The position numbers and the translations under genes are program-made. Source: a virus. Taken from it: a DNA stretch of 64,000 nucleotides. The stretch covers positions 32,001 through 96,000 of the IMG/VR virus record IMGVR_UViG_3300033049_000020; one strand, 5' to 3'. The notes below the pieces were generated by a model, which worked only from the letters and a program-made list of their open reading frames with translations, was not told where the DNA came from and made no database searches. Below are positions 23,523-63,739 of the stretch, one piece after another (the stretch's first letter is position 1; the number at the start of each line of letters is the position of its first letter).

Positions 23523-24051
23523 AGCAGACATTCCCACACCACCAAATAAAAATAATAAACTATGATAGAAGAAGACAATATAACCGCTCAGTTAATAGAA
23601 GAGCAAGCATCACTAACGATGATAATAGAACAACTGGATAGTATGACCTCAATAGAATTTGTTGAGTTCGGTAACGCAACACGATTGAGTAGAGATATTA
23701 CTAAAGGTAAGATAGAAGCATTGAAATGGGTATTAGAAATAGAGAATGACCAATAAGAAATTTGCATTAACCCTAGTGGCAATGGCTACAATAGGAGCCA
23801 TACCATTATTATTATTAGAGGGTAGAGAAATAATAATTGGAGTCACCGTTTGGTACCTATCAGTATTAGTGATGATAGGTAATGGTACAACCGTAGTAAA
23901 AAATTTTTGGAAAATTAAGCACAAAATACAAAAATAATAGAAAATATTTTCCAGAAGACTTGTATTATTGGAAACTTTTTCGTATCTTTGTACTAATTAT
24001 AATAAACAGGTAGAACTTTCTGCCTAACCTAAAGAATAGAAATCGGTGAAA

Positions 24052-24141
24052 ATGATGAGTATACATATTAGTTCGATTAATTGGAGACGCAATGTCACCA
24101 TGGTCAGCAATTGCTTAGATTTCACCAAAACAGGAATATAA
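24052..24141 (+). CDS. Leader peptide of tRNA array 1: MMSIHISSINWRRNVTMVSNCLDFTKTGI
   Basis: Lies between promoter (23960-23991) and terminator; codons match the downstream tRNA isotypes. Confidence 0.75.
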   Translation: MMSIHISSINWRRNVTMVSNCLDFTKTGI

Positions 24142-24161
24142 AGCAATATCTCGAAAGAGTT

Positions 24162-24196
24162 AAGCCCTGACCAGTTAAACGGTCAGGGCTTTTTTA
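24162..24196 (+). terminator. Attenuator terminator 1
   Basis: AAGCCCTGACC...GGTCAGGGCTT-TTTT; competing TGGTCAG at 24101-24107. Confidence 0.85.
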
Positions 24197-24202
24197 TTAT
24201 AT

Positions 24203-24274
24203 GGTGTTTTAAGCTTTAAGGTGAAGCGCTAGGCTGTGAACCTAGAGAAAACGGCTCGGTACCGTTATTACACC
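24203..24274 (+). tRNA. tRNA-His(GTG), atypical T-loop
   Basis: CTAGG-CT-GTG-AA-CCTAG; G-1/C73. Confidence 0.75.
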
Positions 24275-24327
24275 CTTTAGTGGTCGTTTTTGTACCAGCG
24301 ACATATTTATATTAAAACAATATAGAT

Positions 24328-24975
24328 ATGGCAAGGAAACGAAACAAGTATCACTACATTTATAAGACTACCAATCTTTTAAATGATAAATATTACATAG
24401 GTATGCACTCAACGTCTAATTTAGACGATGGGTACATGGGAAGCGGTAAGAGATTGAGGTATTCAATCAATAAGCATGGTGTAACAAACCATAAGATTGA
24501 GATACTGGAATTCTTCGACAGTAGAGAAGAGTTGGTTAAGCGTGAAGAGGAAGTGGTTAATTTAGATGAAATAGCCAAAGTGGAGTGTATGAATTTAAGA
24601 GTTGGTGGTAGTGGTGGGTTTTCACCAGAACAACAACGATTAAACGCTGAGAAGTCCAATGCGAAGCAAAGGGTTCTTAGGGAAACAGACCCAGAGTGGG
24701 TGGGAGCATACAATAATAAGATTAGTGCTGCTAGAGTAAAGGAGTACGCTGATGGTGAGAGAAGTAAGAAGTGGCAGAAGGATTGGACAGGACTAAAACA
24801 TAGTGAAGAGGCTAAACGAAAGATGAGCGAATCCACTAAAGGTACTGGAACTGGGAAGGATAATTCACAGTATGGTACTTATTGGATAAGTAAAGATGGG
24901 GTTAGCAAAAAAATAAAGAAGGAAGACTTAGAAAGTATGACTCAACAAGGTTGGGTCAGAGGAATAAAAAAATAG
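24328..24975 (+). CDS. Seg-like GIY-YIG/NUMOD3 homing endonuclease
   Basis: YIYKTTN..YYIGMH..YMGSG; NSQYGTYW. Confidence 0.85.
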   Translation: MARKRNKYHYIYKTTNLLNDKYYIGMHSTSNLDDGYMGSGKRLRYSINKHGVTNHKIEILEFFDSREELVKREEEVVNLDEIAKVECMNLRVGGSGGFSPEQQRLNAEKSNAKQRVLRETDPEWVGAYNNKISAARVKEYADGERSKKWQKDWTGLKHSEEAKRKMSESTKGTGTGKDNSQYGTYWISKDGVSKKIKKEDLESMTQQGWVRGIKK

Positions 24976-25051
24976 TTGTTATCTGTGAGATAACATGTTC
25001 TTTGACATCTTGGTATTAATTTTATCCGCACATAACCGTGTGCGGATATAC

Positions 25052-25122
25052 ACAGGTGAGAGCTTAGGAGCCAGCAAGTCTCCAAAACTTCGCTGTAGGG
25101 GGTTCGATGCCCTCCACCTGTG
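25052..25122 (+). tRNA. tRNA-Trp(CCA)
   Basis: ACAGGTG/CACCTGT; AAGT-CT-CCA-AA-ACTT. Confidence 0.75.
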
Positions 25123-25127
25123 CAATC

Positions 25128-25215
25128 GGAAAGGCAAGCCAATAGGTGGTGGCCGCACTTTGCTAAAGTGTTAGGAGTAACCAGTCTCGTATGGGTTCGA
25201 TTCCCATTCTTTCCG
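25128..25215 (+). tRNA. tRNA-Ser(GCT)
   Basis: GCACT-TT-GCT-AA-AGTGT; long variable arm; G73. Confidence 0.85.
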
Positions 25216-25222
25216 CAACAAT

Positions 25223-25305
25223 AGAGGGTACCGTCAAGGTGACAAACTGGTTTTGAACGTCAGGGGTACGGGTGACTGTACGGGTTTCGATTACTCTACC
25301 CTCTA
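25223..25305 (+). tRNA. tRNA-Ser(TGA)
   Basis: AGAGGGT/ACCCTCT; CTGGT-TT-TGA-AC-GTCAG; long variable arm. Confidence 0.75.
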
Positions 25306-25329
25306 CCCTTGACTTTTTGGTACTTAGCA

Positions 25330-25371
25330 CTACGTTTATTCGTAGCAATGGTTCGATTCCATTATCTTCCG
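25330..25371 (+). pseudogene. 3' half of a Ser-type tRNA
   Basis: Variable arm CTACG/CGTAG, T-arm, ATCTTCCG; preceded by an orphan endonuclease-leader motif. Confidence 0.6.
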
Positions 25372-25382
25372 CTTGACTTTAT

Positions 25383-25454
25383 GGTGTCTATAGTGTAGTG
25401 GTAACACGACTGCTTGTGGTGCAGTTATCGTCAGTTCGAACCTGATTAGACACC
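25383..25454 (+). tRNA. tRNA-His(GTG)
   Basis: CTGC-TT-GTG-GT-GCAG; G-1/C73. Confidence 0.85.
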
Positions 25455-25464
25455 CTTAAATTTT

Positions 25465-25580
25465 TAGGTGAAAGCGGAATGGGAGACGCGGCTCTAAAAC
25501 GTGGAGTGTCAGAGACTAAAATCTCGCAATGAAACCTACCAAGGTGAATTTGTAATTGAGTTCGAATCTCAATCACCTGA
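25465..25580 (+). ncRNA. Expanded tRNA-like RNA with extra internal hairpins
   Basis: TAGGTGA/TCACCTG acceptor, GCG/CGC D-arm, TTGAGTTCGAATCTCAA T-arm. Confidence 0.6.
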
Positions 25581-25620
25581 CTAAAATTAAAAAAATGTGT
25601 AGAATTAACAAATGAAATAA

Positions 25621-25694
25621 GGGGAGATGTATAACTGGTTTAATCGGTGGCGTTGTTAGCGCTTACCATGTCGGTTCGAATCCGACTCGCCCCT
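25621..25694 (+). tRNA. Atypical tRNA-Asn(GTT) with extended anticodon stem
   Basis: GGT-GGCG-TT-GTT-AG-CGCT-TACC; canonical T-arm. Confidence 0.6.
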
Positions 25695-25726
25695 CAAAAT
25701 GCCTCCATGGTGTAACTGGATAACAT

Positions 25727-25802
25727 GGCTCTATGGTGTAATTGGATAACATTTTTCTCTTCTAAAGAAAAGTTTCAGGTTCGAACCCTGATAGGGCTAC
25801 CA
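25727..25802 (+). tRNA. tRNA-Arg(TCT), inside a split tRNA-Arg (halves 25701-25726 and 26380-26422)
   Basis: TTTCT-CT-TCT-AA-AGAAA; encoded CCA. Confidence 0.88.
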
Positions 25803-25852
25803 TGTAACGGATAATTTTTGAACTTTATCCATTGCACTCCATATTTATTACT

Positions 25853-26380
25853 ATGGAGAAAGAATTTCTAGTGGATTGTATTGACAAAGATATGTCAGTA
25901 TACCAAATATCTAAGGTGATTAAAAAAGCGCCTAACACTGTTACCTATTGGTTGAACAAGTTTGAATTAAAGACTAACCATAAATCGTTTAAAGATAAGG
26001 GTATTCTTGACTATGGTGGTGAAAGGGAATGTCCCAGATGCACTAAAACAAAGCCGTTAAGTGAATATTACGATAGAAGGGGTAAGAAGGGTTCATCAGT
26101 TTATTGTAAGCCCTGTACCACAGACCAATCTACAGAACGACAACGTAACTTGAAGCAGCTTGCTATCGATTATAAGGGTGGTGGTTGTGAAGTGTGTGGG
26201 TATGACAAATATAATGGTGCTTTAGATTTTCACCATATAGACCCTACTGAAAAGGATTTCAACATATCCAAAATAACTAGTTACACGTTTACTGATAAAG
26301 TTAAAGCTGAATTAGATAAATGTGCCCTAGTATGCTCCAATTGTCATAGGGAGATATATGGTGGGGTAATAGAATTGTAG
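25853..26380 (+). CDS. HNH endonuclease
   Basis: YKGGGCEVCGY..LDFHH..ELDKCALVCSNCHRE. Confidence 0.88.
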   Translation: MEKEFLVDCIDKDMSVYQISKVIKKAPNTVTYWLNKFELKTNHKSFKDKGILDYGGERECPRCTKTKPLSEYYDRRGKKGSSVYCKPCTTDQSTERQRNLKQLAIDYKGGGCEVCGYDKYNGALDFHHIDPTEKDFNISKITSYTFTDKVKAELDKCALVCSNCHREIYGGVIEL

Positions 26381-26829
26381 CCTTCTAAGCGTTTGTTCTG
26401 GGTTCGAGTCCTAGTGGGGGTACATTAATAATTAAAATTAGAAACAATGGCAAGAGAACTATTACCTGAAGTACGAGAGTTCACATATGACTATGTGAAA
26501 AGGTATCCATATACCACTTCAGCACCTATTGTTAGCCTATCTTATATTAAAGGTTGGAGCGATGGTTTGAAGCATATGGAATTGAGAGCATTGGTCATCA
26601 AAGAGATGGACAGAGCTAAGAAGAGAATTAAGGGTGAGAAAGATGACCTTATAACTAAACATGGTGGTAAGTGTAAGAAGTGTAAGAGAGATGTTAAGTT
26701 TGAGGTGATGCCCGATTATGATAGAATGGAAGATTATGGTAGGGCTATAATGTATGGTGACGGTCACGGACACAGCGATGTGATGTATTGTCAACGATGT
26801 TATACGCATAGAATAACAAAATAATAAAT

Positions 26830-26903
26830 TGGGTGTCCTAGTAGTAGGGTACATTGTAGTCTGCGCAGATGAAATTACGAAGGTGCAACACCTTCACACC
26901 CAG
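26830..26903 (+). ncRNA. tRNA-like RNA
   Basis: TGGGTGT/ACACCCA stem; GAAGG-TGCAACA-CCTTC T-like arm; no canonical anticodon loop. Confidence 0.5.
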
Positions 26904-26986
26904 CATATTGACTTATGGTGAAATTGGTTATCACTTGACTTTTATAGAACTAGCGTTATATTTATATCATATAAAGATACATTAAT

Positions 26987-27589
26987 ATGGCTAGTTTAAA
27001 AGAAAAGATAGTAAAATTACGTAAAGAAGGTAAAACGTATGACGATATAAAAGAAAATTTAGGATGTTCAAAATCGACAATATCTTATCATTGCCAAAGA
27101 CATAACGTTGGAGATAAGCGTAAGCGAACGTTTTTAACTGATGAGGATGTTATTAAATTACAAAATTATTACTTAATACACACCATTGAGGAATGCTGTA
27201 ACGAGTTCAACATTTCAAGGACTACAGTACATAGATATACTGACAATAAGATTTGGGGTCTGACGGAGGATGAGAAAAAAAGTAGAAATTATAATAGGGT
27301 TAAATTACATAGACAAAAGATAAAAGAGAAAGCAGTAGAATATAAAGGTGGGGAGTGTGAAAAATGTGGATACAATAAATGCTATTGGGCATTCGATTTT
27401 CACCATACTAACCCAGATGACAAAGAATTTACTATCTCCAAATACTCAACTCTGTCATGGGACAGAATTAAAGTGGAATTAGATAAGTGTGAGATGTTAT
27501 GTGCTAACTGTCATAGAGAATCACATTATCAAGAGTATATCGATGATTTATATTGTGCGGTAACCAGCGTGTCTGATACACATGACTAA
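26987..27589 (+). CDS. HTH plus HNH endonuclease
   Basis: N-terminal HTH; FDFHH..ELDKCEMLCANCHRE. Confidence 0.88.
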   Translation: MASLKEKIVKLRKEGKTYDDIKENLGCSKSTISYHCQRHNVGDKRKRTFLTDEDVIKLQNYYLIHTIEECCNEFNISRTTVHRYTDNKIWGLTEDEKKSRNYNRVKLHRQKIKEKAVEYKGGECEKCGYNKCYWAFDFHHTNPDDKEFTISKYSTLSWDRIKVELDKCEMLCANCHRESHYQEYIDDLYCAVTSVSDTHD

Positions 27590-27630
27590 GGTAACGGTTG
27601 AAAATAAGGGTTCGATTCCCTTTCGCACAA
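27554..27630 (+). tRNA. Rearranged tRNA-Ile(GAT)
   Basis: TGTGCGG/TCGCACA; CGTGT-CT-GAT-AC-ACATG lies before the D-loop-like GTAACGG. Confidence 0.7.
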
Positions 27631-27635
27631 CACAT

Positions 27636-27729
27636 AGGCATGTAGCAGCCCAACCTGATAAGTTGGAGAACTGTAATTGGTATCTTGCGATAACTTCAAA
27701 TGTGGGTTCGATTCCCATCTTGCCTACCA
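27636..27729 (+). tRNA. Rearranged tRNA-Ile(GAT)
   Basis: CCAAC-CT-GAT-AA-GTTGG before GTAATTGG; encoded CCA. Confidence 0.7.
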
Positions 27730-27861
27730 ATAAGTCACCAACGCCTCTCGTAGAAGCGCATCTTGGTATCTAAATGAGAATCAACGGATGTCGGCAGATG
27801 TTGATAGGATTTGTGACGGATGTTTATGGTCATCTAGGGCGTTCTTTTTAAAACCATACTT

Positions 27862-27941
27862 CCAGACATACCGAGCCAAGCTTATATCTTGGATATTCGT
27901 AGCGGTTGTTGAAAACGAGGGTTCGAATCCCTCTGTCTGGA
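27862..27941 (+). tRNA. Rearranged tRNA-Ile(TAT)
   Basis: CCAGACA/TGTCTGG; CCAAG-CT-TAT-AT-CTTGG before GTAGCGG. Confidence 0.7.
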
Positions 27942-28010
27942 CTTTTATAGTTGATTTATATACTTGTTGAATTGTATATGTTAAATTAATTTAGTATCTT
28001 TACATTATAT

Positions 28011-28085
28011 TGCGGATTGGAGCAGTAGTAGCTCGCAAGGCTCATAACCTTGAGGTCGGGGGTGCAAATCCCTCATCCGCTTCCA
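28011..28085 (+). tRNA. tRNA-Met(CAT), initiator-like
   Basis: 1:72 mismatch; CAAGG-CT-CAT-AA-CCTTG; encoded CCA. Confidence 0.8.
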
Positions 28086-28451
28086 GAGGTTTACTTTTTG
28101 TTCCTAGATTAAAGGTCGTAAGATATAATAATATGAAGTCAATTAATCAAATATTCTTAACTAATCCATCGTTGATGGATGAATCTGAAGTAAAAGATTT
28201 AATCGAATATTGTCAAGAACTGGAAGATGACGTAATTGAATTAAAACAGGAAGATGTAGCCATTATGGAGAATAAATTATCAGTATTGGTTTCAGATATT
28301 TATCATAGTATTAATGATGTATTAAAAAAAGACGCTGAATCTATACGATTTGGTGATACTGAACGAATAGATTTTAATAAAGCCATAATTAATTTAAAGG
28401 AGTACTTATTGGATTTTTCTAAAAGTAATGGGTTCTATTTTTAAACATAAA

Positions 28452-28539
28452 TGCAGGGTCGAGAAGTGGTATCTCATGAGTCTCATAAGCTCAAATAGCC
28501 TAACGGTTGTCGATGGTTCGATTCCATCTCCTGCTTCCA
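28452..28539 (+). tRNA. tRNA-Met(CAT), long variable arm
   Basis: TGAGT-CT-CAT-AA-GCTCA; encoded CCA. Confidence 0.8.
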
Positions 28540-28592
28540 GAGGTTTACTTTTTGTACTTTAGCCTTATATTTATATCTAAACGATATAGATT

Positions 28593-29216
28593 ATGGCAAG
28601 AAGAGAAAAGAAGTTTCACTACATCTACAAGACAACTAATTTACTTAGTGGTAGATATTACATCGGTATGCATTCAACAGATAACTTAGAAGATGGTTAT
28701 ATGGGTTCTGGAACAAGATTAAAGAGGTCACTTAATAAACATGGTAAAGAAAACCATAAGGTTGAATTCATAGAGTTCCTTGACACCAGAAAAGAGTTGA
28801 AGGATAGGGAAACTGAAATAGTTAATCTTAATGAGGTAGCTAAAGAAGACTGTATGAATCTGAAGGTAGGTGGTGAAGGCGGCTTCTCAAGTGAAGAACA
28901 GAGAAAGAATTTCCATTCTGCTGGTGGTCGCAAAGTATTCCAATTATTGAGTAGTAGACACGCCAATAGACTAAAAACAGACCCAAATTACAGAGAATAC
29001 TGGTTAGCGTCTTTAAAGCCATACGATTGGACTGGTCGAAAGCATTCAGAGGAAACAAAAGAGAAGATGTCTGAATCATCTAAAGGTATGGGAACTGGAA
29101 AGACTAACTCTCAATACGGTACTTGTTGGGTAACCAGAGATGGCTTAAATAAGAAGATAAAGAAAGATAATCTTAGCGAATTTATCGATGATGGGTGGAT
29201 AAGGGGTCGAAAGTGA
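28593..29216 (+). CDS. Seg-like GIY-YIG/NUMOD3 homing endonuclease
   Basis: Paralog of 24328..24975. Confidence 0.85.
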   Translation: MARREKKFHYIYKTTNLLSGRYYIGMHSTDNLEDGYMGSGTRLKRSLNKHGKENHKVEFIEFLDTRKELKDRETEIVNLNEVAKEDCMNLKVGGEGGFSSEEQRKNFHSAGGRKVFQLLSSRHANRLKTDPNYREYWLASLKPYDWTGRKHSEETKEKMSESSKGMGTGKTNSQYGTCWVTRDGLNKKIKKDNLSEFIDDGWIRGRK

Positions 29217-29506
29217 TTTGTATATGTCAAATATGTTTTGTATCTTTGCACTATGGAAGATGTTAAAATGTTTCTATTCGCAAGGTGGATAGCCACTTGT
29301 TATGCTGACACTCACTTAGATGGTGAGATGAGAAGTGAAGCTGATAAAGGGTTTGACGTATCAGATAATATGTCTGTTTTGAACGGGGAAGATGGTTATT
29401 GGTATAAGAAACAACTCAAACACTTCAATGAAGTTGTATACCCTAACTACCTTGAGAATGGAACAGTTAAGGATACTGAAGACTTCCTTAAAGTAAAATA
29501 ATATAT

Positions 29507-29598
29507 CGCGGAAATGAGGGCTGGTGGTGACGCTCAGATAGGCTCATAACCTATCAGGTTGAAACATACTGTGATTGGTTCGATTCCAACTTCCGCAA
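29507..29598 (+). tRNA. tRNA-Met(CAT), C1-A72 mismatch, long variable arm
   Basis: ATAGG-CT-CAT-AA-CCTAT. Confidence 0.75.
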
Positions 29599-29688
29599 CT
29601 TTTGATATTTCTCTAGAGAGGCTGATACCCGTAGAGTGTAAAGTGGTAATATAGCTTAGAAAGTGAAGTTCACAATATCAAAAAATAT

Positions 29689-29774
29689 TCTCAGTTCGCA
29701 TAGTGGCCGATTGCAGAAGACTGTTAATCTTCCGAGGGTTCCCCTCCACGCTAGTTCGAATCTAGCACTGAGAG
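29689..29774 (+). tRNA. tRNA-Asn(GTT), long variable arm
   Basis: GAAGA-CT-GTT-AA-TCTTC; G73. Confidence 0.85.
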
Positions 29775-29832
29775 CATCTATTTACATTTTCTTGTAAGTT
29801 GACTATATTTATTAACGTAAACAGTTAATAAT

Positions 29833-30282
29833 ATGAGCGATACACGACACAAGAATAAACTATCTGAAGAGTTAGTAACTAAGTTACAGAATTACTATGA
29901 TGAAGGTAATTCATGTCAGAAAACGGCAGATAAGTTTGGCGTTGGTAAGACAACTGTTAGGAGTTACGTTACTATCAGACCTAAGAAATTATTGACAGAT
30001 AAGGAGCGCAAGGCGTCTGCTGTTAAGGCGGTCACCAAACGAAGGCGTAAAATTAAAGAAATGGCCATCGAATATAAAGGTGGTAAATGCTGTAAATGTA
30101 GTTATAATAGGTGTAATGACGTTTTGGAGTTCCACCATTTAGACCCAAGTAAAAAAGATTTTAACATTTCTCAAAGAGGACATTCAAGGTCTTGGGTTAG
30201 AGTAAAAAAAGAATTAGATAAATGTATTATGGTGTGTAGTAATTGTCATAGAGAGATACATGCTGGACTTATAGAGGCTTAA
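29833..30282 (+). CDS. HTH plus HNH endonuclease, followed by a tRNA 3' half (30279-30319)
   Basis: LEFHH..ELDKCIMVCSNCHRE. Confidence 0.88.
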   Translation: MSDTRHKNKLSEELVTKLQNYYDEGNSCQKTADKFGVGKTTVRSYVTIRPKKLLTDKERKASAVKAVTKRRRKIKEMAIEYKGGKCCKCSYNRCNDVLEFHHLDPSKKDFNISQRGHSRSWVRVKKELDKCIMVCSNCHREIHAGLIEA

Positions 30283-30441
30283 CTCTCAGGTCGAGATTTC
30301 GAAATTCTCTGTAGGCGCAAAATGAATTGTCCAGATGGTATAAAGCAGTCTGGTTTAAGGAGTTCGAATCTCCACCTAGGGGTCTTACCCAAGATTCCCT
30401 AGGTATAACAAATCAAGGAAGAGCGTACATTCATTTAACAA

Positions 30442-30513
30442 CCCGATATGGTATAATGGCTAGAACGACACTCTCATAAGGTGTAGGACACAGTTCGATT
30501 CTGTGTATCGGGA
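30442..30513 (+). tRNA. tRNA(CAT), Met or Ile2
   Basis: ACACT-CT-CAT-AA-GGTGT. Confidence 0.8.
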
Positions 30514-30520
30514 CTAACAT

Positions 30521-30590
30521 TGCGGTGCTTAGTGGCAGAGGTCTTTGGCTCATATCCGAAGATAAGGCAGTTCGAACCTGCTCACCGCGA
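30521..30590 (+). tRNA. tRNA(CAT), reduced D-arm
   Basis: TTTGG-CT-CAT-AT-CCGAA. Confidence 0.7.
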
Positions 30591-30628
30591 CACTTGATTT
30601 TTTAGTAATAAATGTGTATCTTTGTAAA

Positions 30629-30967
30629 ATGGAAGAAATTAAAATGAGTGGAGACACTAACAACTTGATAACGGTAAAAGCTAAGATTCGTTTACATAGT
30701 CGAGGTGGTAGAAAAGCTGGCATTGTAAGTGGATATCGACCAGAACACGTATTTGAATATCTACACGGTGACACCATCAAAGCAAATTTCATGGGTCAAA
30801 TAGACTTTGAGTATGATGAAATAAAACGTGGAGAAGATAAAATTGTAACGGTTAAATTCATTAACACTGAAACCGTTAGAGAATACCTTACCGTTGGACG
30901 TACATGGTGGTTGTACGAAGGTGCCCGTCAAGTAGGTGAAGGTAAGATAATCGAAATAGTGGAATGA
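30629..30967 (+). CDS. Stand-alone EF-Tu domain III-like protein
   Basis: GGRKAGIVSGYRPEHVF...LYEGARQVGEGKI resembles EF-Tu GGRH..F..GYRPQFYF...REGGRTVGAG. Confidence 0.7.
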   Translation: MEEIKMSGDTNNLITVKAKIRLHSRGGRKAGIVSGYRPEHVFEYLHGDTIKANFMGQIDFEYDEIKRGEDKIVTVKFINTETVREYLTVGRTWWLYEGARQVGEGKIIEIVE

Positions 30968-31189
30968 ACGAACAAATAAAAAGATTTTTTAAAGGATATA
31001 CAGATTCAATGAATCTACCCAACCTAATAGTGGTACTTATTCTATTTAATGTTATGTTATTTTCGGATGAATTTACATGGTGGGCATTTATGGCTCTAAA
31101 TGGATTCTTCTTCGTAATAACGTGGTTGAACTACTTAACATGGCATTTCGAGAAAAAAAAACTAAAAAGAACCTTAAAAACAAGGAATA

Positions 31190-32380: not shown

Positions 32381-32520
32381 TGGCGACTATTGGAGAAAAC
32401 TGGAATGAGCATGAGTCAGATGATAAGGTGCTAATGATTCTTGCCTTTGTAATTGGTTTTATAATGGCAATGGGATTTGGATTAGGTTTTTTAATTGCTT
32501 GGTTCATGTTTGCTTAAAAC

Positions 32521-32591
32521 GCCCCTATGGTGTAATGGATGCATAAGACTTTCCTAAAGTTTTGGTGGAGGTTCGAACCCTTCTAGGGGTA
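32521..32591 (+). tRNA. tRNA-Arg(CCT)
   Basis: AGACT-TT-CCT-AA-AGTTT. Confidence 0.82.
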
Positions 32592-32594
32592 CAC

Positions 32595-32667
32595 ACTCTC
32601 TTGGTGTAACTGGATAGCACTTGAAACTACGAATTTCAGAGTAAGAGTTCAAATCTCTTGGAGAGTA
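32595..32667 (+). tRNA. tRNA-Arg(ACG)
   Basis: TGAAA-CT-ACG-AA-TTTCA. Confidence 0.85.
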
Positions 32668-32673
32668 CTTTAT

Positions 32674-32752
32674 GGCGGTGTAGCCCGTTCAGGTTTCGAC
32701 CCTGTTAACGGTAATGGAGCTGCAAATGTGGGTTCGAATCCCACCTCCGTCT
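32674..32752 (+). tRNA. Rearranged tRNA-Arg(TCG)
   Basis: CCGTT-CAGG-TT-TCG-AC-CCTG-TT-AACGG then TAATGGA. Confidence 0.7.
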
Positions 32753-32785
32753 CAACGTTACAGTATATACTTTATTGTGTAATAT

Positions 32786-32865
32786 GGGGGTATAACCGAC
32801 TAAGTTTTCTAAACTTTTAATCGTAATCGGAGTTGAAAATGGGGGTTCGAGTCCCTCTACCCCTT
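32786..32865 (+). tRNA. Rearranged tRNA-Arg(TCT)
   Basis: AAGT-TT-TCT-AA-ACTT then GTAATCGGA. Confidence 0.7.
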
Positions 32866-49956: not shown

Positions 49957-49964
49957 CAACATAT

Positions 49965-50042: not shown

Positions 50043-50045
50043 AAT

Positions 50046-50129
50046 GCCGTAGTGGTGGAATAGGTAGACACGAGGGTTTCAAAAGCCCTTTCCAGTAATG
50101 GAGTGTGGGTTCGAGTCCCACTTACGGTA
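50046..50129 (+). tRNA. tRNA-Leu(CAA)
   Basis: AGGGT-TT-CAA-AA-GCCCT. Confidence 0.88.
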
Positions 50130-50458: not shown

Positions 50459-50530
50459 TTCCCTATGGCGTAACGGCAAGCGTATCGTTTTTACATGACG
50501 AAGGGGATGGTTCGATTCCATCTAGGGAAA
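50459..50530 (+). tRNA. tRNA-Val(TAC)
   Basis: TCGTT-TT-TAC-AT-GACGA. Confidence 0.82.
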
Positions 50531-50568
50531 CTGGTGACTTTTTGGTACCTAGCACTATATTTAACTAT

Positions 50569-57586: not shown

Positions 57587-58923
57587 GATGGACTTAGAAA
57601 AACAATGGAACGACTTACGTAACGATGGTAAATTATTATCATATATTGAGGATAAGTTTGACCACTATAAAGAACTTGGCTATCAAGTAAGTGCCTTCAT
57701 AAGCTCTTCTTATATTAGTATTGGAGATGAGAGTATCACAGGCAACAAATCCATGTACCACGAATTAAAGAGTATTCATGATATGGATGCGTACTTAAAA
57801 GATAAAGAGGAAAGTCAACCATGAACAAACTACACGCAAGAAAAATAAGTGAAACCATACCTGATGTTGCAATATTCAACATGCTGGAACGTGCTAAGAC
57901 TGAGGTAAAGGATTGGTCGGTTCCATGTAAGGTGAATGGTCAGATAAGTAGGGGACATTTCTGGAACATGTTCGCATGTCAACTTAAAGCTCCAGATTTT
58001 GAAATCGTGAGTAGTATGGTTAAGTATAGTCTTATATATGAGTTCGGTGACCTACTTCCAAAGGAGTACCAACCACCCAAAAAGAAAAAAGGTAAGGAGT
58101 TACCATTAAACTATATTCATTCAGAACCAAAATTTAACTAATGGAAACAGATGGAGATTACGATACTGGATGGGATGAATCAGAAGATACTGAACTAGAA
58201 GCATGGGATGTAGAAACGGATTCTGAAGACCCAGAATTTGAAACTGGTAAGGAACCAAATAAGGATATTGATTATTTATACATTCTTGGTGAGGCTTGGC
58301 CAGTATATCCGCAAGGTATCACCACTATTTTCGAAGATAAATATGAAAGACCTCATATTGTATCTAGAGAGCAATTTGATGCTATTCACACCAAATACTC
58401 TTGTATAGATATTGATGATGAGGTAACGGCTATCGATATAGTCAAAATTGGAAACACATCTTACGAATTTACCATTAAAGAACTTAATATCAGATGTCGC
58501 TCTAACTATCCTTGGGCATTCTTTGAGAACACTCCAGAGAATAGACCGAAAATCAATGAGTACTATAGACAGAAAAAGAATAGAGAAGAGTTGGCTGAAA
58601 TAGTTGAAGTATTAAGAAACGATATTGCACAACTATGAACGAAGAAGTTACCCACTTCAATTATTGTATAGCTAGACCATGGAAAAATAATCCAAATAGT
58701 CTATCCGCATACGCTTTAGGTACTCAATTATTTTATGGTACTATGGAGGAGGCTGAAGACACAAGAGCGAATATAAGTAAACGAGCTGGAAAAGAATATG
58801 AAATCTATAAGCTTGATAATCAACCACTTATGAGAAAACCTTAAAATATTTTACAAAAGACTTGTATTATCCAAATACTTTTCGTATCTTTGTACTATAT
58901 TTAATAGAAAGACATAAACAGTT

Positions 58924-58992
58924 ATGAGAAACTTTAACGACATATTCGAATTCAACTTTGCCGCATTTGCGGAGGAGGATGATTGCATCTAG
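58924..58992 (+). CDS. Leader peptide of tRNA array 3: MRNFNDIFEFNFAAFAEEDDCI
   Basis: Promoter, Phe/Ala/Glu/Asp-rich uORF, terminator. Confidence 0.8.
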   Translation: MRNFNDIFEFNFAAFAEEDDCI

Positions 58993-59034
58993 ATGCCAAA
59001 GGATATGTTGTAAACGAAACTCAATACGATATAC

Positions 59035-59068
59035 AAAACCTTTGGCTAACCAGTCAAAGGTTTTTTTT
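59035..59068 (+). terminator. Attenuator terminator 3
   Basis: AAAACCTTTGGCT-AACC-AGTCAAAGGTTTT-TTTT; competing GCCAAAGG at 58995-59002. Confidence 0.88.
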
Positions 59069-59185
59069 ATGCCTTAAAATTAAAATATGCGACCTAAGCT
59101 AACTTGGTAGAAGCACTGGCTTGAAACCCTTCTTTCTAATAGAAGTAAAACAATTAGAGTGAGTTCTTTGACATCTTGGTTAAAT

Positions 59186-59259
59186 GGGGTAGTGGTAGAG
59201 TTGGTCAATTGCGTTCGGTTGAAGCCCGAAAGATGTAGGTTCGATTCCTACCTGCCTCA
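59186..59259 (+). tRNA. tRNA-Phe(GAA), inside a split tRNA-Phe (halves 59089-59129 and 59741-59768)
   Basis: TTCGG-TT-GAA-GC-CCGAA. Confidence 0.85.
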
Positions 59260-59323
59260 CAAAAGTTTGAACTATTTTTACACTTTTCAGTCTTTGTTGA
59301 TATTTATATTAAACGATGATATT

Positions 59324-59740
59324 ATGGAAAAGAAAATTTGTACACGATGTGAAGATAGTAAAGAGTTAGACGACTTCAGTTGGAAGAGTAAAGTAAAAGG
59401 GACTAAACAGTCTAAGTGTAAAGTATGTATGCGTGAGTTGGATAAGATAAAATACGCTAATGATACTGAAAGGAGAAGAAGAATAAGGGAAACCGCAAAA
59501 CTGGCTTATATTAGGAATCGTGATTTTGTGCGGAGAGTAAAAAGGTTGGGTAGCTGCTCTGAATGTGTAGAAGATAGGTGGTATTGTTTAGACTTCCATC
59601 ATTGTGGAGATAAAGAGTTTGAACTTAGTGATATGGTACATTCTGGGTATTCCATTATTAAGATTAAAAAGGAAATTAGAAAATGTAAGCTTCTATGTGC
59701 TAATTGTCATAGAGAAGAACATTACCAGAATGGTTATTGA
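59324..59740 (+). CDS. HNH endonuclease
   Basis: LDFHH..EIRKCKLLCANCHRE. Confidence 0.88.
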   Translation: MEKKICTRCEDSKELDDFSWKSKVKGTKQSKCKVCMRELDKIKYANDTERRRRIRETAKLAYIRNRDFVRRVKRLGSCSECVEDRWYCLDFHHCGDKEFELSDMVHSGYSIIKIKKEIRKCKLLCANCHREEHYQNGY

Positions 59741-59776
59741 CGCGGTTCGAAACTGGTAGGTCGCACCAAAACATAC

Positions 59777-59849
59777 GTGACAGTAGCTCAGTTGGTAGAG
59801 CATCGCCCTGAAGAGGCGAGTGTCGGGGGTTCGAGACCCTCTTGTCACA
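59777..59849 (+). tRNA. tRNA-Phe(GAA)
   Basis: TCGCC-CT-GAA-GA-GGCGA. Confidence 0.9.
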
Positions 59850-60013
59850 CAGCTAATATTTTAGCCAGAAATAGCTAAAATAGAGGTAAATAGTTAATAT
59901 ATTAGCTATTGTTCTTTGACATCTTGGTTAAATGGTGCTGTATGCAAGCGGTTCAACGCAGCAATTTGACATTTTCTAAATGTTTAGTATATTTATATTA
60001 AAATAGATATATT

Positions 60014-60640
60014 ATGGTAAGAAAATGGAGAGAAAAGGAAATTGAGTTTTTAAAGCTTAATTATGGTGCTAATGGTTGTAAATACGTTTGTGAAAAATTA
60101 AATAGAGGTAGAGGTAGTGTACAGAAAAAGGCTAAAGTCTTCAACCTGAAAGTAGATAGGAAAAAAATTTATTATTCAGTGGAAGTTGTTAGTAGAATAG
60201 TCAGTGAAAGTATGTCGATGAAGGATGTGGTGTTGGCATTAGGTAAAAGTGTTAGTGGTAAACAATATAAGGTAATAAAAAAGTTTATAGATGATAATAG
60301 TATTGACGATACACATTTTAATCCTTACCACTTAAATAAAACTAATTTAAAAATTGGTAGAGTCACATATCCAATTGACCATTGGCTTAAGAACGGTTCT
60401 AATATTAGTAGTTCTAACTTAAAGGTTAAACTATATAAAGAAGGTCTGAAGAAGAGGGATTGCGAAATGTGTGGGCAAGGTGAAGAATGGTTAGGTAAAA
60501 AAATGAGTTTAATACTTGACCATATTAATGGGGTGAATGATGATAATAGGTTGGATAACTTAAGGATTGTTTGCCCTAATTGTAACGCTACCTTGGAAAC
60601 CCATTGTAGAGGTAGTAAGGGATTAAAACAACGTGCGTAA
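60014..60640 (+). CDS. HNH endonuclease
   Basis: CEMCG..LDHINGVNDDNRLDNLRIVCPNC. Confidence 0.9.
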   Translation: MVRKWREKEIEFLKLNYGANGCKYVCEKLNRGRGSVQKKAKVFNLKVDRKKIYYSVEVVSRIVSESMSMKDVVLALGKSVSGKQYKVIKKFIDDNSIDDTHFNPYHLNKTNLKIGRVTYPIDHWLKNGSNISSSNLKVKLYKEGLKKRDCEMCGQGEEWLGKKMSLILDHINGVNDDNRLDNLRIVCPNCNATLETHCRGSKGLKQRA

Positions 60641-60714
60641 TGCAATTGGGTGCGCAACTGGGCTTTCACCCCAGCTACATTGTTAGAGAGTGGGTTCGAT
60701 TCCCACACGCATGA
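60632..60714 (+). tRNA. tRNA-Glu(TTC), long variable arm, inside a split tRNA (halves 59934-59964 and 60720-60767)
   Basis: CTGGG-CT-TTC-AC-CCCAG. Confidence 0.8.
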
Positions 60715-60908
60715 CTATACAACCTTGTGTCTATATGACTTCGAGGGTTCGAATCCCTTCGGCACTACATTATTGGTGTTCCAAATTGACCTAAAATTGA
60801 GTGTTTTGGAACACCAATAACCAGCCAAAACTACCTGTTTTAGGGTACATTTGGCTGGTTATAGAACGCGGAATGTACTTAAATGTGGTAGATTCCGAGA
60901 AATATCAC

Positions 60909-60981
60909 CGCCCGTTGGTCTATCGGTTAGGACGTCTGGTTTTCAACCAGAAGGTGATGGGTTCAATTCCCATACGGGTGA
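60909..60981 (+). tRNA. tRNA-Glu(TTC)
   Basis: TCTGG-TT-TTC-AA-CCAGA. Confidence 0.88.
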
Positions 60982-61011
60982 CCTTGACAATCTGGAAAGA
61001 CAGATAATTAT

Positions 61012-61088
61012 GGGGGATGGGACTGCTTTGGAGTGGTCACCTCACTTGCAATGAGGAAATCAGATGGGTTCGAATCCCATATCCTCCA
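61012..61088 (+). tRNA. tRNA-Ala(TGC)
   Basis: CCTCA-CT-TGC-AA-TGAGG; G3-U70. Confidence 0.85.
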
Positions 61089-61153
61089 CTCAATGTGGGA
61101 CTTTGATTTACTTTTTCTCCACTTTGCGTATATTTATAATAAAGACTAAATAA

Positions 61154-61933
61154 ATGGCTAAGTGTAAGAATATTGAGTGTAAAAATAATACAGAAGGTAA
61201 ACGAGTTTATTGTTCGTTACAGTGTAGGAACTATTATGTTAACAAATATATTAGGGACTACAATAAAAATAGCAAGGGGCTTGCCAAAGACGCTAAGAAA
61301 GTTTATGAGGACAACCCTAAATATTGCTTAAACCCTAATTGCGGAGAGAAGATAACATATAAGAAAAGAAGGAACCAATATTGTAATAGCTCATGTCAGG
61401 CGTCTGTTACGGGTGTAGGTAGAATTGTTAGCGAAAGTACTAGGGAAAAGCATAGATTAAGTAGGTTAAAACAAATTGGTGATTACAAAAAGGTTGATTG
61501 TAAATGGTGTGGTTCAGAACTATTAGTTATGAATAGAAGACTATATTGTGATTCAGAATGTAGAAGAAAATATAATCGTAAGAATATGGATGAGTTCTTA
61601 ATCTACAAAGCTGACACAAAATTCGGTTTTAATTTGGGTGATTATCCTAAAGAATTTAATTTTGGGCTGATAGAGGAACACGGTTGGTACTCACCAACCA
61701 ATTCAAGAAAGCCTAATATTGGTGGTATAAGTAGAGACCACATGTTATCAGTTAGAGAAGGGTTTAATAGTGGGATAGACCCAAAATTATTGAGTCATCC
61801 AGCCAATTGTAAATTGATGATTCATGGTGATAATATTAGTAAGAATAAGAAATCTAGTATAACAGAAGAAGAATTAAAGGAAAGGATTAAAGAATGGAAT
61901 AAGAAATATGGGGCTATGGTGACAACTGGCTAA
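61154..61933 (+). CDS. Zinc-finger-rich HNH-like endonuclease
   Basis: YCS..C repeats; SRDH..HPANC. Confidence 0.7.
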   Translation: MAKCKNIECKNNTEGKRVYCSLQCRNYYVNKYIRDYNKNSKGLAKDAKKVYEDNPKYCLNPNCGEKITYKKRRNQYCNSSCQASVTGVGRIVSESTREKHRLSRLKQIGDYKKVDCKWCGSELLVMNRRLYCDSECRRKYNRKNMDEFLIYKADTKFGFNLGDYPKEFNFGLIEEHGWYSPTNSRKPNIGGISRDHMLSVREGFNSGIDPKLLSHPANCKLMIHGDNISKNKKSSITEEELKERIKEWNKKYGAMVTTG

Positions 61934-61983
61934 CACGTTGCTTTTGCAAGGCAGAGATGGGGTATCGTACACCCCTAGCTCCA
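61910..61983 (+). tRNA. tRNA-Ala(TGC), atypical T-loop
   Basis: GGGGCTA/TAGCTCC with G3-U70; TT-TGC-AA loop. Confidence 0.8.
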
Positions 61984-62297
61984 CTTATTAACTTAAAAAT
62001 GAAGTAAAATGAGACTTACAGAGAAAAGAGAAATGCTTATGAAATTGGGTGAGAACCTAATGAGTAAAGGTGGTAAGCTAACACTTAACTTCACCAACGG
62101 TAGTATGAGGTATACGGAGCTTATAGCTTCTGAACAGTATCACTATCAAAGTGACAAACGATATGTCGAAATATCGGCTATGGTTCATTTCAGTGAACCA
62201 AACGTCTACAGGGTAATACCTATAGGCACTAATACAATTAGTTTTGTACTGGAAACACTTCTGAGTAACTCCAAGTAACCGCTTGGCATCAGTAATT

Positions 62298-62369
62298 GGT
62301 CTTGAAGCACAATGGCTGTGCAACTCGTTGTCTGCGAGAAAGTTGCGAGTTCGAATCTCGTCAGGACCG
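62298..62369 (+). tRNA. tRNA-Asp(GTC)
   Basis: CTCG-TT-GTC-TG-CGAG; G73. Confidence 0.82.
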
Positions 62370-62398
62370 CCTTTGACAATCTGGAAAGACAGATAAAT

Positions 62399-62481
62399 GG
62401 ATATGGCGCATAACGGCTGGTGTACCTGACTGTCACTCAGGTGTGTGTAACACGTAGTGGGTTCGACTCCCATCATATCTG
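62399..62481 (+). tRNA. tRNA-Asp(GTC), long variable arm
   Basis: CCTGA-CT-GTC-AC-TCAGG; G73. Confidence 0.82.
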
Positions 62482-62517
62482 CCCTTGACTTTTTGGTACT
62501 TAGCCATATTTATATGT

Positions 62518-63159
62518 ATGAGGAAACCAAAAACGATACATTACCTTTACAAGACTACTTGTAAAGTAACAAATAGGTACTATGTAGGGATGCATAGTAC
62601 CAACGACTTAGAAGACGGTTATATGGGTTCTGGAAGAAGGTTACGAGCCTCAATCAGGAAACATGGTGAAGATAACCATACCAAAGAGATATTGGAGTTC
62701 TTTGATGATAGAGGACGACTGATAGAAGCAGAGAAGGAATCTATTACCTTAGACATGATTGATGATAAGGATTGTATGAATCTGATGGGAGGTGGAACAG
62801 GTGGTTTCATCAGCGAAGACCAACAGAGGCATCGTTCAACGATTGCAGTGGAGAAGAGAGAAAAGAAGAGAGAGGACGACCCAGAGTGGGATAAAGAGTA
62901 TAGACAAGCTCAATCCCTATCATTGATGAAGCAATATGAGAGTGGTAAGCGAGTATCCAAGCTCCCAAACTGGGAAGGTAGGAAACATTCAGAAATTACT
63001 AAAGAGAAGATGAGGGAGACTAAGAAGGGACAAGGCTCTGGCGAAACTAACTCTCAATACGGTACTTGTTGGATAACCAAAGATGGTTCCAACAAGAAGA
63101 TTAAGAAACAACTTCTTGATTCATTCCTTACTGAAGGATGGGTTAAAGGTAGAAAATAA
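62518..63159 (+). CDS. Seg-like GIY-YIG/NUMOD3 homing endonuclease
   Basis: Close paralog of 50569..51213. Confidence 0.85.
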   Translation: MRKPKTIHYLYKTTCKVTNRYYVGMHSTNDLEDGYMGSGRRLRASIRKHGEDNHTKEILEFFDDRGRLIEAEKESITLDMIDDKDCMNLMGGGTGGFISEDQQRHRSTIAVEKREKKREDDPEWDKEYRQAQSLSLMKQYESGKRVSKLPNWEGRKHSEITKEKMRETKKGQGSGETNSQYGTCWITKDGSNKKIKKQLLDSFLTEGWVKGRK

Positions 63160-63465
63160 TTTGGATAGGTCGAATATTTTACGTATCTTTTACGTATCTT
63201 TGTAGGATGAAAAGATTTAAGATAGGCGATACGTTCGTCAATAATGTAGACCATAGTAAGGTTAGTTCTAAAGGATATGACCATGCAGTTAACTACCTGC
63301 CATACACTTCAGAACCAGATGAAAGTTTGGAAACTATTGGTAAAACACAAACGGTTATAGATATTGAAGATGGTGATACTATAATCACTGATTTTGTTTT
63401 ATCATCTGGAGAAACGTACTGGTTTGAAAAGGATTCCTCATACGCAGAAAGTTGTAAAAAAATAC

Positions 63466-63576
63466 GAATGTAAGAGCAAGCTGTCGTGAGACGCTGTATT
63501 GGGTTCATTACCCGATAAGTCTACGGTTAAAGGTGGTACCATTGTTAACTTATAGGTGCAATTCCTATTACATTCG
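63466..63576 (+). ncRNA. Expanded tRNA-like RNA
   Basis: GAATGTA/TACATTC; ATAGG-TGCAATT-CCTAT T-like arm. Confidence 0.5.
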
Positions 63577-63579
63577 CTA

Positions 63580-63661
63580 AGGTTGAATACAGCAAACAAA
63601 AATTCCGAGAGATGTGCCCACGGGCACCCTTCCCGACCAAATTCCCGAAAGGGGTCAACCT
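63580..63661 (+). ncRNA. CAGCAA hairpin RNA
   Basis: AGGTTGA/TCAACCT; ATACAGCAA; internal GC hairpins. Confidence 0.6.
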
Positions 63662-63667
63662 ACATTC

Positions 63668-63739
63668 CGTCCTATGGTGTAACGGCTAACATGCTACCCT
63701 GTCACGGTGGCGCTAGGGGTTCGATTCCCCTTGGGACGG
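63668..63739 (+). tRNA. tRNA-Asp(GTC)
   Basis: CTACC-CT-GTC-AC-GGTGG; G73. Confidence 0.88.

Follow-up and report, generated by a model that had tools for sequence, protein, structure and literature searches.

We found that three sets of tRNA genes in the window (the whole 64,000-nucleotide stretch of viral DNA analysed here, positions 32,001 to 96,000 of IMG/VR record IMGVR_UViG_3300033049_000020) are each headed by a unit which, judging from its sequence and from folding models, is probably a ribosome-mediated (leader-peptide) transcription attenuator that senses the decoding speed of the isotypes encoded in its own array. The first-pass annotation had placed three layouts of promoter, upstream ORF, terminator and tRNA genes at 23941-24196, 48497-48729 and 58843-59068, and all three were present there. 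Their order is invariable: a Bacteroidota-type promoter, an ORF of 22-31 codons, a strong U-tailed terminator and the tRNAs.

23955..23995, + strand: unit 1 promoter cassette of the -33 TTG / -7 TAnnTTTG type (pattern with 2 mismatches; aligned with the other three cassettes)
24052..24141, + strand: leader ORF 1, 29 aa; codons 1-14 (24052-24093) encode only M, S, I, H, N, W and R
24162..24196, + strand: intrinsic terminator 1, hairpin and T-run, -20.6 to -23 kcal/mol
48511..48551, + strand: unit 2 promoter cassette (exact pattern match; cassette alignment)
48578..48673, + strand: leader ORF 2, 31 aa; in codons 8-19 (48599-48634) L, V and C make up 10/12
48698..48729, + strand: intrinsic terminator 2, -14 to -15 kcal/mol, 7 T
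58857..58897, + strand: unit 3 promoter cassette, identical to that of unit 2 (pattern match; cassette alignment)
58924..58992, + strand: leader ORF 3, 22 aa, TAG stop; in codons 4-20 (58933-58983) F, E, A and D make up 14/17
59036..59068, + strand: intrinsic terminator 3, about -14 kcal/mol

The promoter pattern gave 3 matches against 0 expected, copies 2 and 3 being identical and copy 1 differing from them at 2 positions. Each terminator hairpin is directly followed by 6-8 T and lies 13, 31 and 123 nt upstream of the first tRNA in units 1, 2 and 3, respectively, and no other strong terminator was found in any unit. The arrays that follow are:

24204..32865, + strand: tRNA array 1, His, Trp, Ser, Asn, Arg, Ile and Met/CAT only, with interspersed GIY-YIG endonuclease genes
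48756..50531, + strand: tRNA array 2, Cys, Val x3, Leu x4
59186..63740, + strand: tRNA array 3, Phe x2, Glu x2, Ala, Asp x3

Several of these genes had been overlooked by ARAGORN. In array 1 they are Trp(CCA) at 25052-25122, three genes for Ile, two additional ones for Arg, and one more each for Asn and for a CAT tRNA; in array 3 the gene concerned is Ala(UGC, with G3:U70) at 61012-61088. Once they were added, the isotype sets proved not to overlap (H, W, S, N, R, I, M / C, V, L / F, E, A, D), as had been claimed; counted in this way, the four arrays of the genome, the fourth of which lies outside the window, partition all 20 amino acids with zero overlap. As a correction to that annotation, one more tRNA-Cys (14998-15069) is located outside the arrays. 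The genome also carries two tRNA(CUA) genes, and the stop codon of leader 3 is TAG; the recoding of TAG that these features suggest found no support, the gain in ORF coverage being no greater with TAG read as sense than with TGA. At Rfam gathering scores, only tRNA and tmRNA were detected in the window.

The leaders were found to be enriched in the amino acids served by their own arrays, as the first-pass annotation had it: 59 of the 107 residues of the four leaders in the genome belong to their own set, where 26.6 would be expected (exact P = 1.3e-11). Of the 24 permutations of the four units, none does better than the true leader-array pairing. When the 1,206 small ORFs of the genome were ranked by own-set content, leaders 1 to 4 came 1st, 4th, 1st and 1st. 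The exceptions to the own set are Ser in leader 2 and Asn and Ile in leader 3. The match holds at the level of the amino acid (isotype); at that of the specific anticodon it exceeds expectation weakly (310 of 341 codons vs 296 expected, p = 0.015; p = 0.17 for Leu/Ser/Arg). Further leaders had been predicted for Gly, Pro, Lys, Thr, Tyr and Gln arrays elsewhere in the genome. Such a unit lies at genome positions 109566-109798, ahead of an array of exactly Pro, Gln, Tyr, Gly, Lys and Thr tRNAs, and its leader contains 15 consecutive codons restricted to T, Y, K, G, Q and P. The count of three units thus stands for the window, whereas the whole genome has four.

Relatives (giant phages) were located via the truncated LeuRS-like gene described below; the exact promoter pattern gave 0 matches in viral contigs, the ORFs directly upstream of leaders 2 and 3 retrieved no relatives when used as queries, and blastn of unit 2 against GenBank phages returned tRNA-level matches only. 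In these relatives we found about 25 further leaders of 17-43 codons, whose composition tracks arrays that are grouped differently. Thus, an alternating Leu-Ser leader stands ahead of Leu/Ser tRNAs, a NNNNQQQYQQNNY leader ahead of Asn/Gln/Tyr tRNAs, an AIIGGGAGA leader ahead of Ile/Gly/Ala tRNAs, an ITRIIRIRRR leader ahead of Ile/Arg tRNAs and a QQQQQQ leader upstream of four Gln tRNAs. In a raw permutation of 36 objectively picked leader-array pairs, the own-set fraction was 0.51 against 0.22 in the permuted pairs (z = 12.8, 0 of 100,000), and the true assignment ranked 1/24, 1/24, 1/5,040, 1/720 and 3/50,000 within individual genomes. The correspondence, whose absence from relatives had been named as grounds for abandoning the idea, therefore extends to them, differently grouped arrays having correspondingly different leaders. 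Homologous leaders keep their composition and lose the order of their residues, and they differ by synonymous codons, which fits codons used as sensors rather than a functional peptide or an RNA motif. No leader was detected for some arrays of the relatives (the first array of L010, the second array of L005, L002 and G004). Across this genome and the relatives, the terminators range from -13.6 to -23 kcal/mol, carry 6-8 T and lie 13-149 nt upstream of the first tRNA.

In each leader, a segment directly 3' of the codon block is able to pair with the 5' arm of the terminator, in agreement with the earlier description:

24101..24117, + strand: candidate antiterminator strand of unit 1, core TGGTCAG/CTGACCA; duplex of -10.2 kcal/mol vs -7.3 kcal/mol for shuffles; seen in folds of truncated transcripts
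48640..48648, + strand: candidate antiterminator strand of unit 2, in which GAGAGCT finds its complement, AGCTCTT, in the 5' arm of the terminator
58994..59003, + strand: candidate antiterminator strand of unit 3, GCCAAAGG, complementary to CCTTTGGC over 8 bp without a mismatch; begins 3 nt after the stop codon

The duplex of unit 3 reaches -14.2 kcal/mol (z = -4.0, none of 300 shuffles being as good). Over 36 cases, pairing between the leader and the terminator 5' arm was better than in dinucleotide shuffles (mean z = -2.0), and the pairing partner was always found at about nt 50-90 of the leader ORF. The geometry is conserved, the pairing segment ending a median of 17 nt upstream of the stop codon and the stop codon lying a median of 24 nt upstream of the terminator. 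Once it had reached the stop codon, a ribosome would stand between the segment and the terminator 5' arm. In a simple steric model, the 5' arm was pre-paired with a probability of 0.72 for a ribosome at codon 8 or 12 and of 0.16 for one that has reached the stop codon, a contrast shown by 26 of 26 leaders. It is partly built into that model, as a ribosome in the latter position leaves less RNA available for pairing. In an equilibrium model, with the footprint masked and pairs across the ribosome allowed, ribosome position had little influence; the switch appears only in the model that forbids such pairs. A classical 1:2 protector or pause hairpin of the trp and his type found no support, as pairing between the block region and the antiterminator strand did not exceed that of shuffles (mean z = 0.09, n = 27). 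It should be considered, then, that the classical three-hairpin scheme is reproduced incompletely and that untranslated leaders are predicted to read through; in addition, the last codons of the block adjoin the antiterminator strand, and stalls there might mask it.

The following mechanism is consistent with these features. Transcription would begin at the common Bacteroidota-type promoter, and a ribosome would read the leader of about 30 codons, the central block of which spells the amino acids of the downstream tRNAs. If a cognate aminoacyl-tRNA were scarce, the ribosome would stall within the block and leave the segment 3' of it free to pair with the emerging 5' arm of the terminator; with the terminator blocked in this way, RNA polymerase would enter the tRNA array. 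If decoding were fast, the ribosome would cover the segment and halt at the stop codon, which separates the segment from the terminator arm; the terminator would then fold and transcription would end. The leader would act as an OR gate over 1 to 8 isotypes and, because the tRNAs of the array would quicken leader translation, the loop would amount to negative feedback, tRNAs being made on demand and switched off when the supply suffices. What would set the system in motion is a matter of speculation, with starvation and the sensing of anticodon nucleases or host defence as candidates.

Other readings of the same units were weighed against this one. The small ORFs could be functional peptides or chance ORFs and the terminators mere insulators, the match to the arrays being coincidence or local compositional bias, and leader 2 and its homologues are indeed hydrophobic and could resemble a membrane peptide. 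We regard this as exceedingly improbable in view of the probability of 1.3e-11 in this genome and the z of 12.8 across relatives, of a true pairing that is best or near-best in every within-genome permutation, and of a composition conserved without residue order in leaders that rank at the top of 1,206 small ORFs. Neither does a translation-independent, T-box-like device, in which the triplets of the block would pair directly with tRNA anticodons and the ORF would be incidental, account well for the data. Its appeal is that the block triplets are complementary to anticodons of the array (310 of 341 decodable) and that a terminator/antiterminator pair exists, as in T-box leaders. Nevertheless, the triplets are always contiguous and in a single frame that opens with an ATG and closes with a stop codon, whose spacing from the terminator is conserved, and the isoacceptor-level match is barely above expectation. 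Rfam gave no T-box match in the window at the gathering threshold, nor at E <= 1 in 24000-33200, and neither a Stem I nor a specifier loop nor a T-box sequence could be recognised. We regard a device of this kind as very unlikely. Other leader families (His, Leu, Thr, Trp and others) had no match at gathering scores either, and a sub-threshold rnk_leader match over terminator 1 (30.5 vs 50 bits, E = 0.048) was judged to reflect terminator likeness.

An alternative that accepts leader translation differs in its outcome: a stall would lead to termination, to the action of Rho or to cleavage of the RNA, with positive feedback or shut-off as the result, or else the unit would do no more than time expression of the array. 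Here the lack of a conserved 1:2 hairpin, and the fact that the direction of the switch is deduced from geometry alone, weigh in its favour. The antiterminator strand, however, lies downstream of the block and upstream of the stop codon, which is the position that gives read-through upon stalling, and silencing tRNA genes at a time when the isotypes they encode run low would bring no evident gain; we therefore rate such an outcome as unlikely. Attenuation, as originally proposed, is the reading best served by the evidence: a prediction made blind came true, the leaders of relatives co-vary with their arrays, and the pairing, which beats shuffles, lies where a translating ribosome would control it.

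Two synthetase-like genes and a boxA-like motif accompany the units:

31190..32380, + strand: ArgRS-like ORF inside array 1 (Pfam PF00750, 5.9e-6; TIGR00456, 1.4e-14, partial)
51888..53162, + strand: truncated LeuRS-like gene downstream of array 2 (TIGR00396, 1.2e-120; 424 aa vs 843)
48737..48745, + strand: boxA-like GTTCTTTGA between terminator 2 and the first tRNA
59163..59171, + strand: boxA-like GTTCTTTGA directly before the first tRNA-Phe

Separate promoter-like sites, at 51344 and 51787, belong to the LeuRS-like gene, which need not therefore be co-regulated with array 2. Internal promoter-like sites at window positions 29248, 30624 and 61664 could, by their sequence, supply distal tRNAs independently of the attenuator. 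Antitermination at boxA of the rrn type operates in bacterial rRNA/tRNA operons, and GTTCTTTGA resembles that element in sequence. The + strand holds 8 copies where 0.7 would be expected, most of them shortly upstream of tRNAs; the motif stands between attenuator and tRNAs in units 2, 3 and 4, being absent there in unit 1 and in several relatives.

Textbooks describe leader-peptide attenuation for operons of amino-acid biosynthesis and for a small number of synthetase genes. A close likeness is to the multivalent attenuators of enterobacteria, such as the ilvGMEDA leader with its Ile, Leu and Val codons and the thr leader with its Thr and Ile codons. The phage units share with these a short leader (translated there and presumably here), a cluster of codons for several amino acids and an intrinsic terminator before the first structural gene, and also, as modelled, an alternative pairing that would sequester the terminator 5' arm, with ribosome position deciding. 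Unlike them, the phage units would regulate tRNAs instead of biosynthetic enzymes, with up to 7-8 isotypes per leader; they are phage-borne, have a Bacteroidota-type promoter, nested internal leaders and sets that vary with the array between phages, and lack a conserved 1:2 protector hairpin. By analogy, they would resemble the pheST attenuator of E. coli (pheM leader) in using leader-peptide attenuation to make a component of the translation machinery respond to how much charged tRNA is available. The pheST attenuator, however, is host-chromosomal, controls a synthetase, senses one amino acid and is not known to govern a tRNA gene. They may likewise be compared with T-box riboswitches, in which a sensor of tRNA status switches terminator and antiterminator before genes serving that amino acid; a T-box, though, recognises uncharged tRNA by direct binding and works without translation, whereas the triplets of the phage units form an ORF. 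A supposed E. coli precedent, a leader before a tRNA-Phe gene, was discarded, as pheV of K-12 has a plain promoter and no leader ORF. The literature searched contained no published description of leader-peptide attenuators controlling tRNA genes.

If the proposed mechanism holds, sensor and product would form a direct loop, tRNAs governing their own synthesis through decoding speed, in viruses that carry a near-complete tRNA set, tmRNA and synthetase-like genes. It offers a possible explanation for isotype-sorted phage tRNA operons, with the leaders as a label, readable from sequence, of co-regulated tRNAs, and it makes testable why large phages carry tRNAs and whether phages respond to tRNA-targeting defences. 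As compact, modular, multi-input sensors of translation status, the leaders could also become synthetic-biology parts for Bacteroidota. More tentatively, and with somewhat more doubt than belief, we suggest that a clade of large and giant phages monitors, one codon class after another, the speed at which host ribosomes decode all 20 amino acids, and that it replaces just the tRNAs in short supply, be this due to the phage's own degradation of host tRNA, to starvation or to host anticodon nucleases. Synthesis would be switched off once the supply is restored, and leaders would be rewritten as tRNA genes change operons. If true, this would be an evolvable, self-tuning controller of the viral translation apparatus and possibly an inducible counter-defence.

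The window contains a tmRNA, a small tRNA cluster and three long + strand tRNA arrays, as detected with ARAGORN and Rfam. At each of the three sites where the first-pass annotation had described a promoter, a leader ORF and a terminator ahead of a tRNA array (units 1 to 3), the sequence agreed with that description. The promoter cassette combines a TTG box with a TAnnTTTG box, the Bacteroides-type promoter consensus. This pattern gave 3 matches against 0 expected, and alignment showed that the cassettes of units 2 and 3 are identical while that of unit 1 deviates at 2 positions. The terminator hairpins (-21, -14 and -14 kcal/mol in units 1, 2 and 3, followed by 6-8 T) end 13, 31 and 123 nt before the first tRNA, respectively, and each is the sole strong terminator of its unit. 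Inside the arrays or past their ends there were also promoter-like sites (window 29248, 30624, 51344, 51787 and 61664), so that expression of distal tRNAs and of the LeuRS-like gene does not have to rely on the attenuator alone.

ORFs in and near the units of the window
24052-24141, + strand, leader ORF 1 (ATG, 29 codons)
31190-32380, + strand, ArgRS-like ORF inside array 1
48578-48673, + strand, leader ORF 2 (ATG, 31 codons)
51888-53162, + strand, truncated LeuRS-like gene (TIGR00396, 1.2e-120)
58924-58992, + strand, leader ORF 3 (ATG, 22 codons)

Genes missed by ARAGORN were recovered with Rfam at relaxed thresholds and our own T-arm-anchored scan. Once they were added, the isotype sets originally proposed (H,W,S,N,R,I,M; C,V,L; F,E,A,D) were recovered.

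tRNAs added beyond ARAGORN (window positions)
25052-25122, array 1, Trp(CCA)
25621-25694, array 1, Asn
27554, 27636 and 27862, array 1, three Ile
30521, array 1, an additional CAT tRNA
32674 and 32786, array 1, two Arg
61012-61088, array 3, Ala(UGC) with a G3:U70 pair

Several genes in the arrays were of unusual build. In five tRNA-like genes (Ile GAU twice, Ile UAU, Arg UCG and Arg UCU; window 27554-27941 and 32674-32865; Rfam tRNA scores of 28-38 bits) the anticodon stem begins merely 14-15 nt past the acceptor 5' end, indicating that they lack a normal D-arm, and a 21-32 nt stretch with a GTAA..GG motif leads into a canonical T-arm. Types that normally have a short variable loop (Met/CAT, Asn, Cys, Glu and Asp) include tRNAs of 83-93 nt with at least 12 extra nt in the variable region (window 28452-28539, 29507-29599, 29689-29775, 48756-48842, 60632-60715 and 62398-62484). 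GIY-YIG/NUMOD3 homing-endonuclease-like genes are scattered between array 1 tRNAs (window 24328-24975 and 28593-29216), and the stretch from terminator 3 to the first tRNA-Phe holds a degenerate fragment (window 59089-59160) that resembles a tRNA, has a GAA-anticodon-like loop and was called by neither ARAGORN nor Rfam.

The first pass had also forecast, from the window alone, that leaders for Gly/Pro/Lys/Thr/Tyr/Gln arrays would be found elsewhere. The source virus record comprises 152,464 bases, of which the window is bases 32001-96000, and its remaining tRNAs form a single array (genome 109944-114694: Pro x3, Gln x2, Tyr, Gly x3, Lys x2 and Thr x2). Upstream of it, the same cassette (genome 109566) is followed by a 29-codon leader ORF (109643-109732) and, 3' of this, a terminator (109766-109798). 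Codons 5-19 of this leader encode TTTYKGKQYPQGTKP, 15 consecutive residues drawn solely from Pro/Gln/Tyr/Gly/Lys/Thr, with all six present. This fourth unit is an out-of-sample confirmation of the forecast, and the four arrays partition all 20 amino acids with zero overlap.

The tmRNA and the small cluster (window 12751-13125 and 14998-15483) belong to none of the four arrays and lack a leader. The cluster comprises a tRNA-Cys and two amber-suppressor-type tRNAs with CUA anticodons, and whole-genome ORF statistics gave no sign of TAG recoding. Suppression of the TAG at the end of leader 3 would let the ribosome read seven extra codons, taking it across the antiterminator strand, the segment pairing with the terminator 5' arm. 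Genome-wide, about 26 + strand promoter-like sites carry a TATCTTTG box (e.g. window 13175, 29235, 46451 and 54416), and at many of them the ATG of the next ORF is just 6-8 nt downstream, so many phage mRNAs may be leaderless or almost so; the four attenuator units, in contrast, have 5' UTRs of 25-57 nt.

Residues of the own set, i.e. the amino acids served by the array behind a given leader, accounted for 59 of the 107 leader residues (initiator Met left out), against 26.6 expected from the amino-acid usage of the genome (exact P = 1.3e-11). The 4x4 leader/array table was likewise far from random (chi-square P = 1e-9), and among the 24 leader/array permutations the true pairing scored 59 and the runner-up 42. 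When all ATG ORFs of 15-60 codons in the six frames of the genome were ranked for own-set enrichment, the leaders came 1st, 4th, 1st and 1st among 1,206. The match of leader codons to specific anticodons was marginal, and sensing is therefore claimed at the isotype level only.

No close relatives were found among GenBank phages, nor by searches with the promoter pattern or neighbouring ORFs. The LeuRS-like gene (51888-53162) as query retrieved 11 IMG/VR loci (52-66% identity), 5 of them in 368-508 kb records that each contain 42-68 tRNAs; the tRNA-rich regions of these records were added to the comparison. A single fixed rule was applied to both strands of all loci: a hairpin plus T-run no more than 700 nt ahead of a tRNA, preceded by an ATG ORF (10-60 codons) whose end lay within 95 nt of the hairpin. 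The relatives group their arrays otherwise, and leader composition tracks the grouping.

Leaders of relatives and the tRNAs downstream
Alternating Leu-Ser, twelve residues: Leu, Ser x3, Leu x2, Ser, Leu
NNNNQQQYQQNNY: Asn x3, Gln, Tyr x2, Gln x2
PQFQFVVPF: Pro, Phe, Pro, Phe, Val x2
ITRIIRIRRR: Ile, Arg x4
AIIGGGAGA: Ile, Gly, Ala, Gly, Ala, Gly
IYIGYIAEGGYEAG: Glu x3, Tyr x2, Gly x3, Ile, Ala x2
QQQQQQ: Gln x4
SSSSRSS: Ser, Arg, Ser

One relative has a 23-residue block (the codon run cognate to the array) made of L,T,V,N,M,I,C,R, and the array behind it carries those isotypes alone. Over the 36 rule-chosen pairs, noise included, the mean own-set fraction was 0.51, against 0.22 with arrays permuted (z = 12.8; 0/100,000). 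Since kinship among phages inflates this cross-phage permutation, permutations were also run within genomes: the true assignment was the single best in genomes G000 (1/24), G002 (1/24), G003 (1/5,040) and G005 (1/720), and ranked 3 of 50,000 in G001. The proposed leader/array correspondence thus extends to the relatives, in which nested attenuators also occur, a second leader and terminator within the operon gating a subset of isotypes (e.g. an H/K/F/S/W leader and, further on, an S/R leader). An N-terminal M-K-N/T-x-x-N-I motif recurs in front of the variable block in many of their leaders, suggesting that existing leaders were duplicated and rewritten to give new ones (nested attenuators or shared motif: loci L021 3459 and 6283; L026 3258 and 8152; L010 13847 and 17625; L021 16311 and 17552; L022; L025). 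Homologous leaders keep composition and not residue order, and differ by synonymous codons, which fits selection for which codons occur rather than for peptide or RNA sequence. Not every relative has the system: in the DNA examined, L002 and G004 showed no leader, and neither did some arrays in L005 and L010.

In all four leaders of the genome, the segment immediately 3' of the block complements the terminator 5' arm.

Predicted antiterminator pairing
Unit 1: TGGTCAG / CTGACCA
Unit 2: GAGAGCT / AGCTCTT
Unit 3: GCCAAAGG / CCTTTGGC
Unit 4: CACTGAG / CTCAGTG

Complementarity is retained although the pairing sequences vary between leaders. The leader/5'-arm duplex was stronger than in dinucleotide-shuffled leaders (mean z = -2.0, 36 cases), and its partner in the leader invariably fell around nt 50-90 of the ORF. 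A trp-type 1:2 protector pairing was not conserved (mean z = 0.09). Median geometry places the pairing segment at nt 60-70 of a 90-nt ORF, 17 nt from segment end to stop codon and 24 nt from stop codon to terminator. Given this conserved spacing, a ribosome that shields about 15 nt to either side of its A site would act in two ways: when terminating, it would occupy the gap separating the antiterminator strand and the terminator 5' arm, and a stall anywhere in the block's first two thirds would leave both free. In a steric model in which only RNA 3' of the ribosome folds and the terminator 3' arm is not yet made, the 5' arm was pre-paired with a probability of 0.72 when the ribosome stalled at codon 8 or 12, and of 0.16 once it stood at the stop codon; 26/26 leaders showed this direction, the contrast being partly inherent in the model design. 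An alternative model permitting pairs across the ribosome gave little effect. As no 1:2 protector is conserved, we favour a two-state scheme, which predicts that a wholly untranslated leader would read through into the array.

Classical ribosome-mediated attenuation, applied to tRNA operons, is the best-supported reading of these data. Slow decoding of any one listed isotype would cause read-through into the array, and the tRNAs produced would speed up decoding of the leader and restore termination. The trigger could be host tRNA decay in infection, starvation or anticodon nucleases. A motif, GTTCTTTGA(C/A)AT, occurs in 8 copies on the + strand against 0.7 expected (including window 16140, 24997, 48737, 59163 and 59911, and genome 104310 and 109837), mostly directly after a promoter or attenuator and directly before tRNAs. 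It resembles boxA, an element of bacterial rRNA operons, and by analogy would suggest processive antitermination past the decision point.

The closest known systems are the ilvGMEDA and thr leaders, multivalent like the multi-isotype phage leaders; the pheST leader, which likewise regulates a gene of the translation apparatus; and T-box leaders, which follow the same logic without translation. Rfam leader and T-box models had no match in the phage sequence, no leader was found at E. coli pheV, and full-text literature searches turned up no description of an attenuator preceding tRNA genes. The attenuation mechanism is familiar; what is unfamiliar is its target, the multi-isotype 'bar code', its rewriting alongside operon content and the viral setting.
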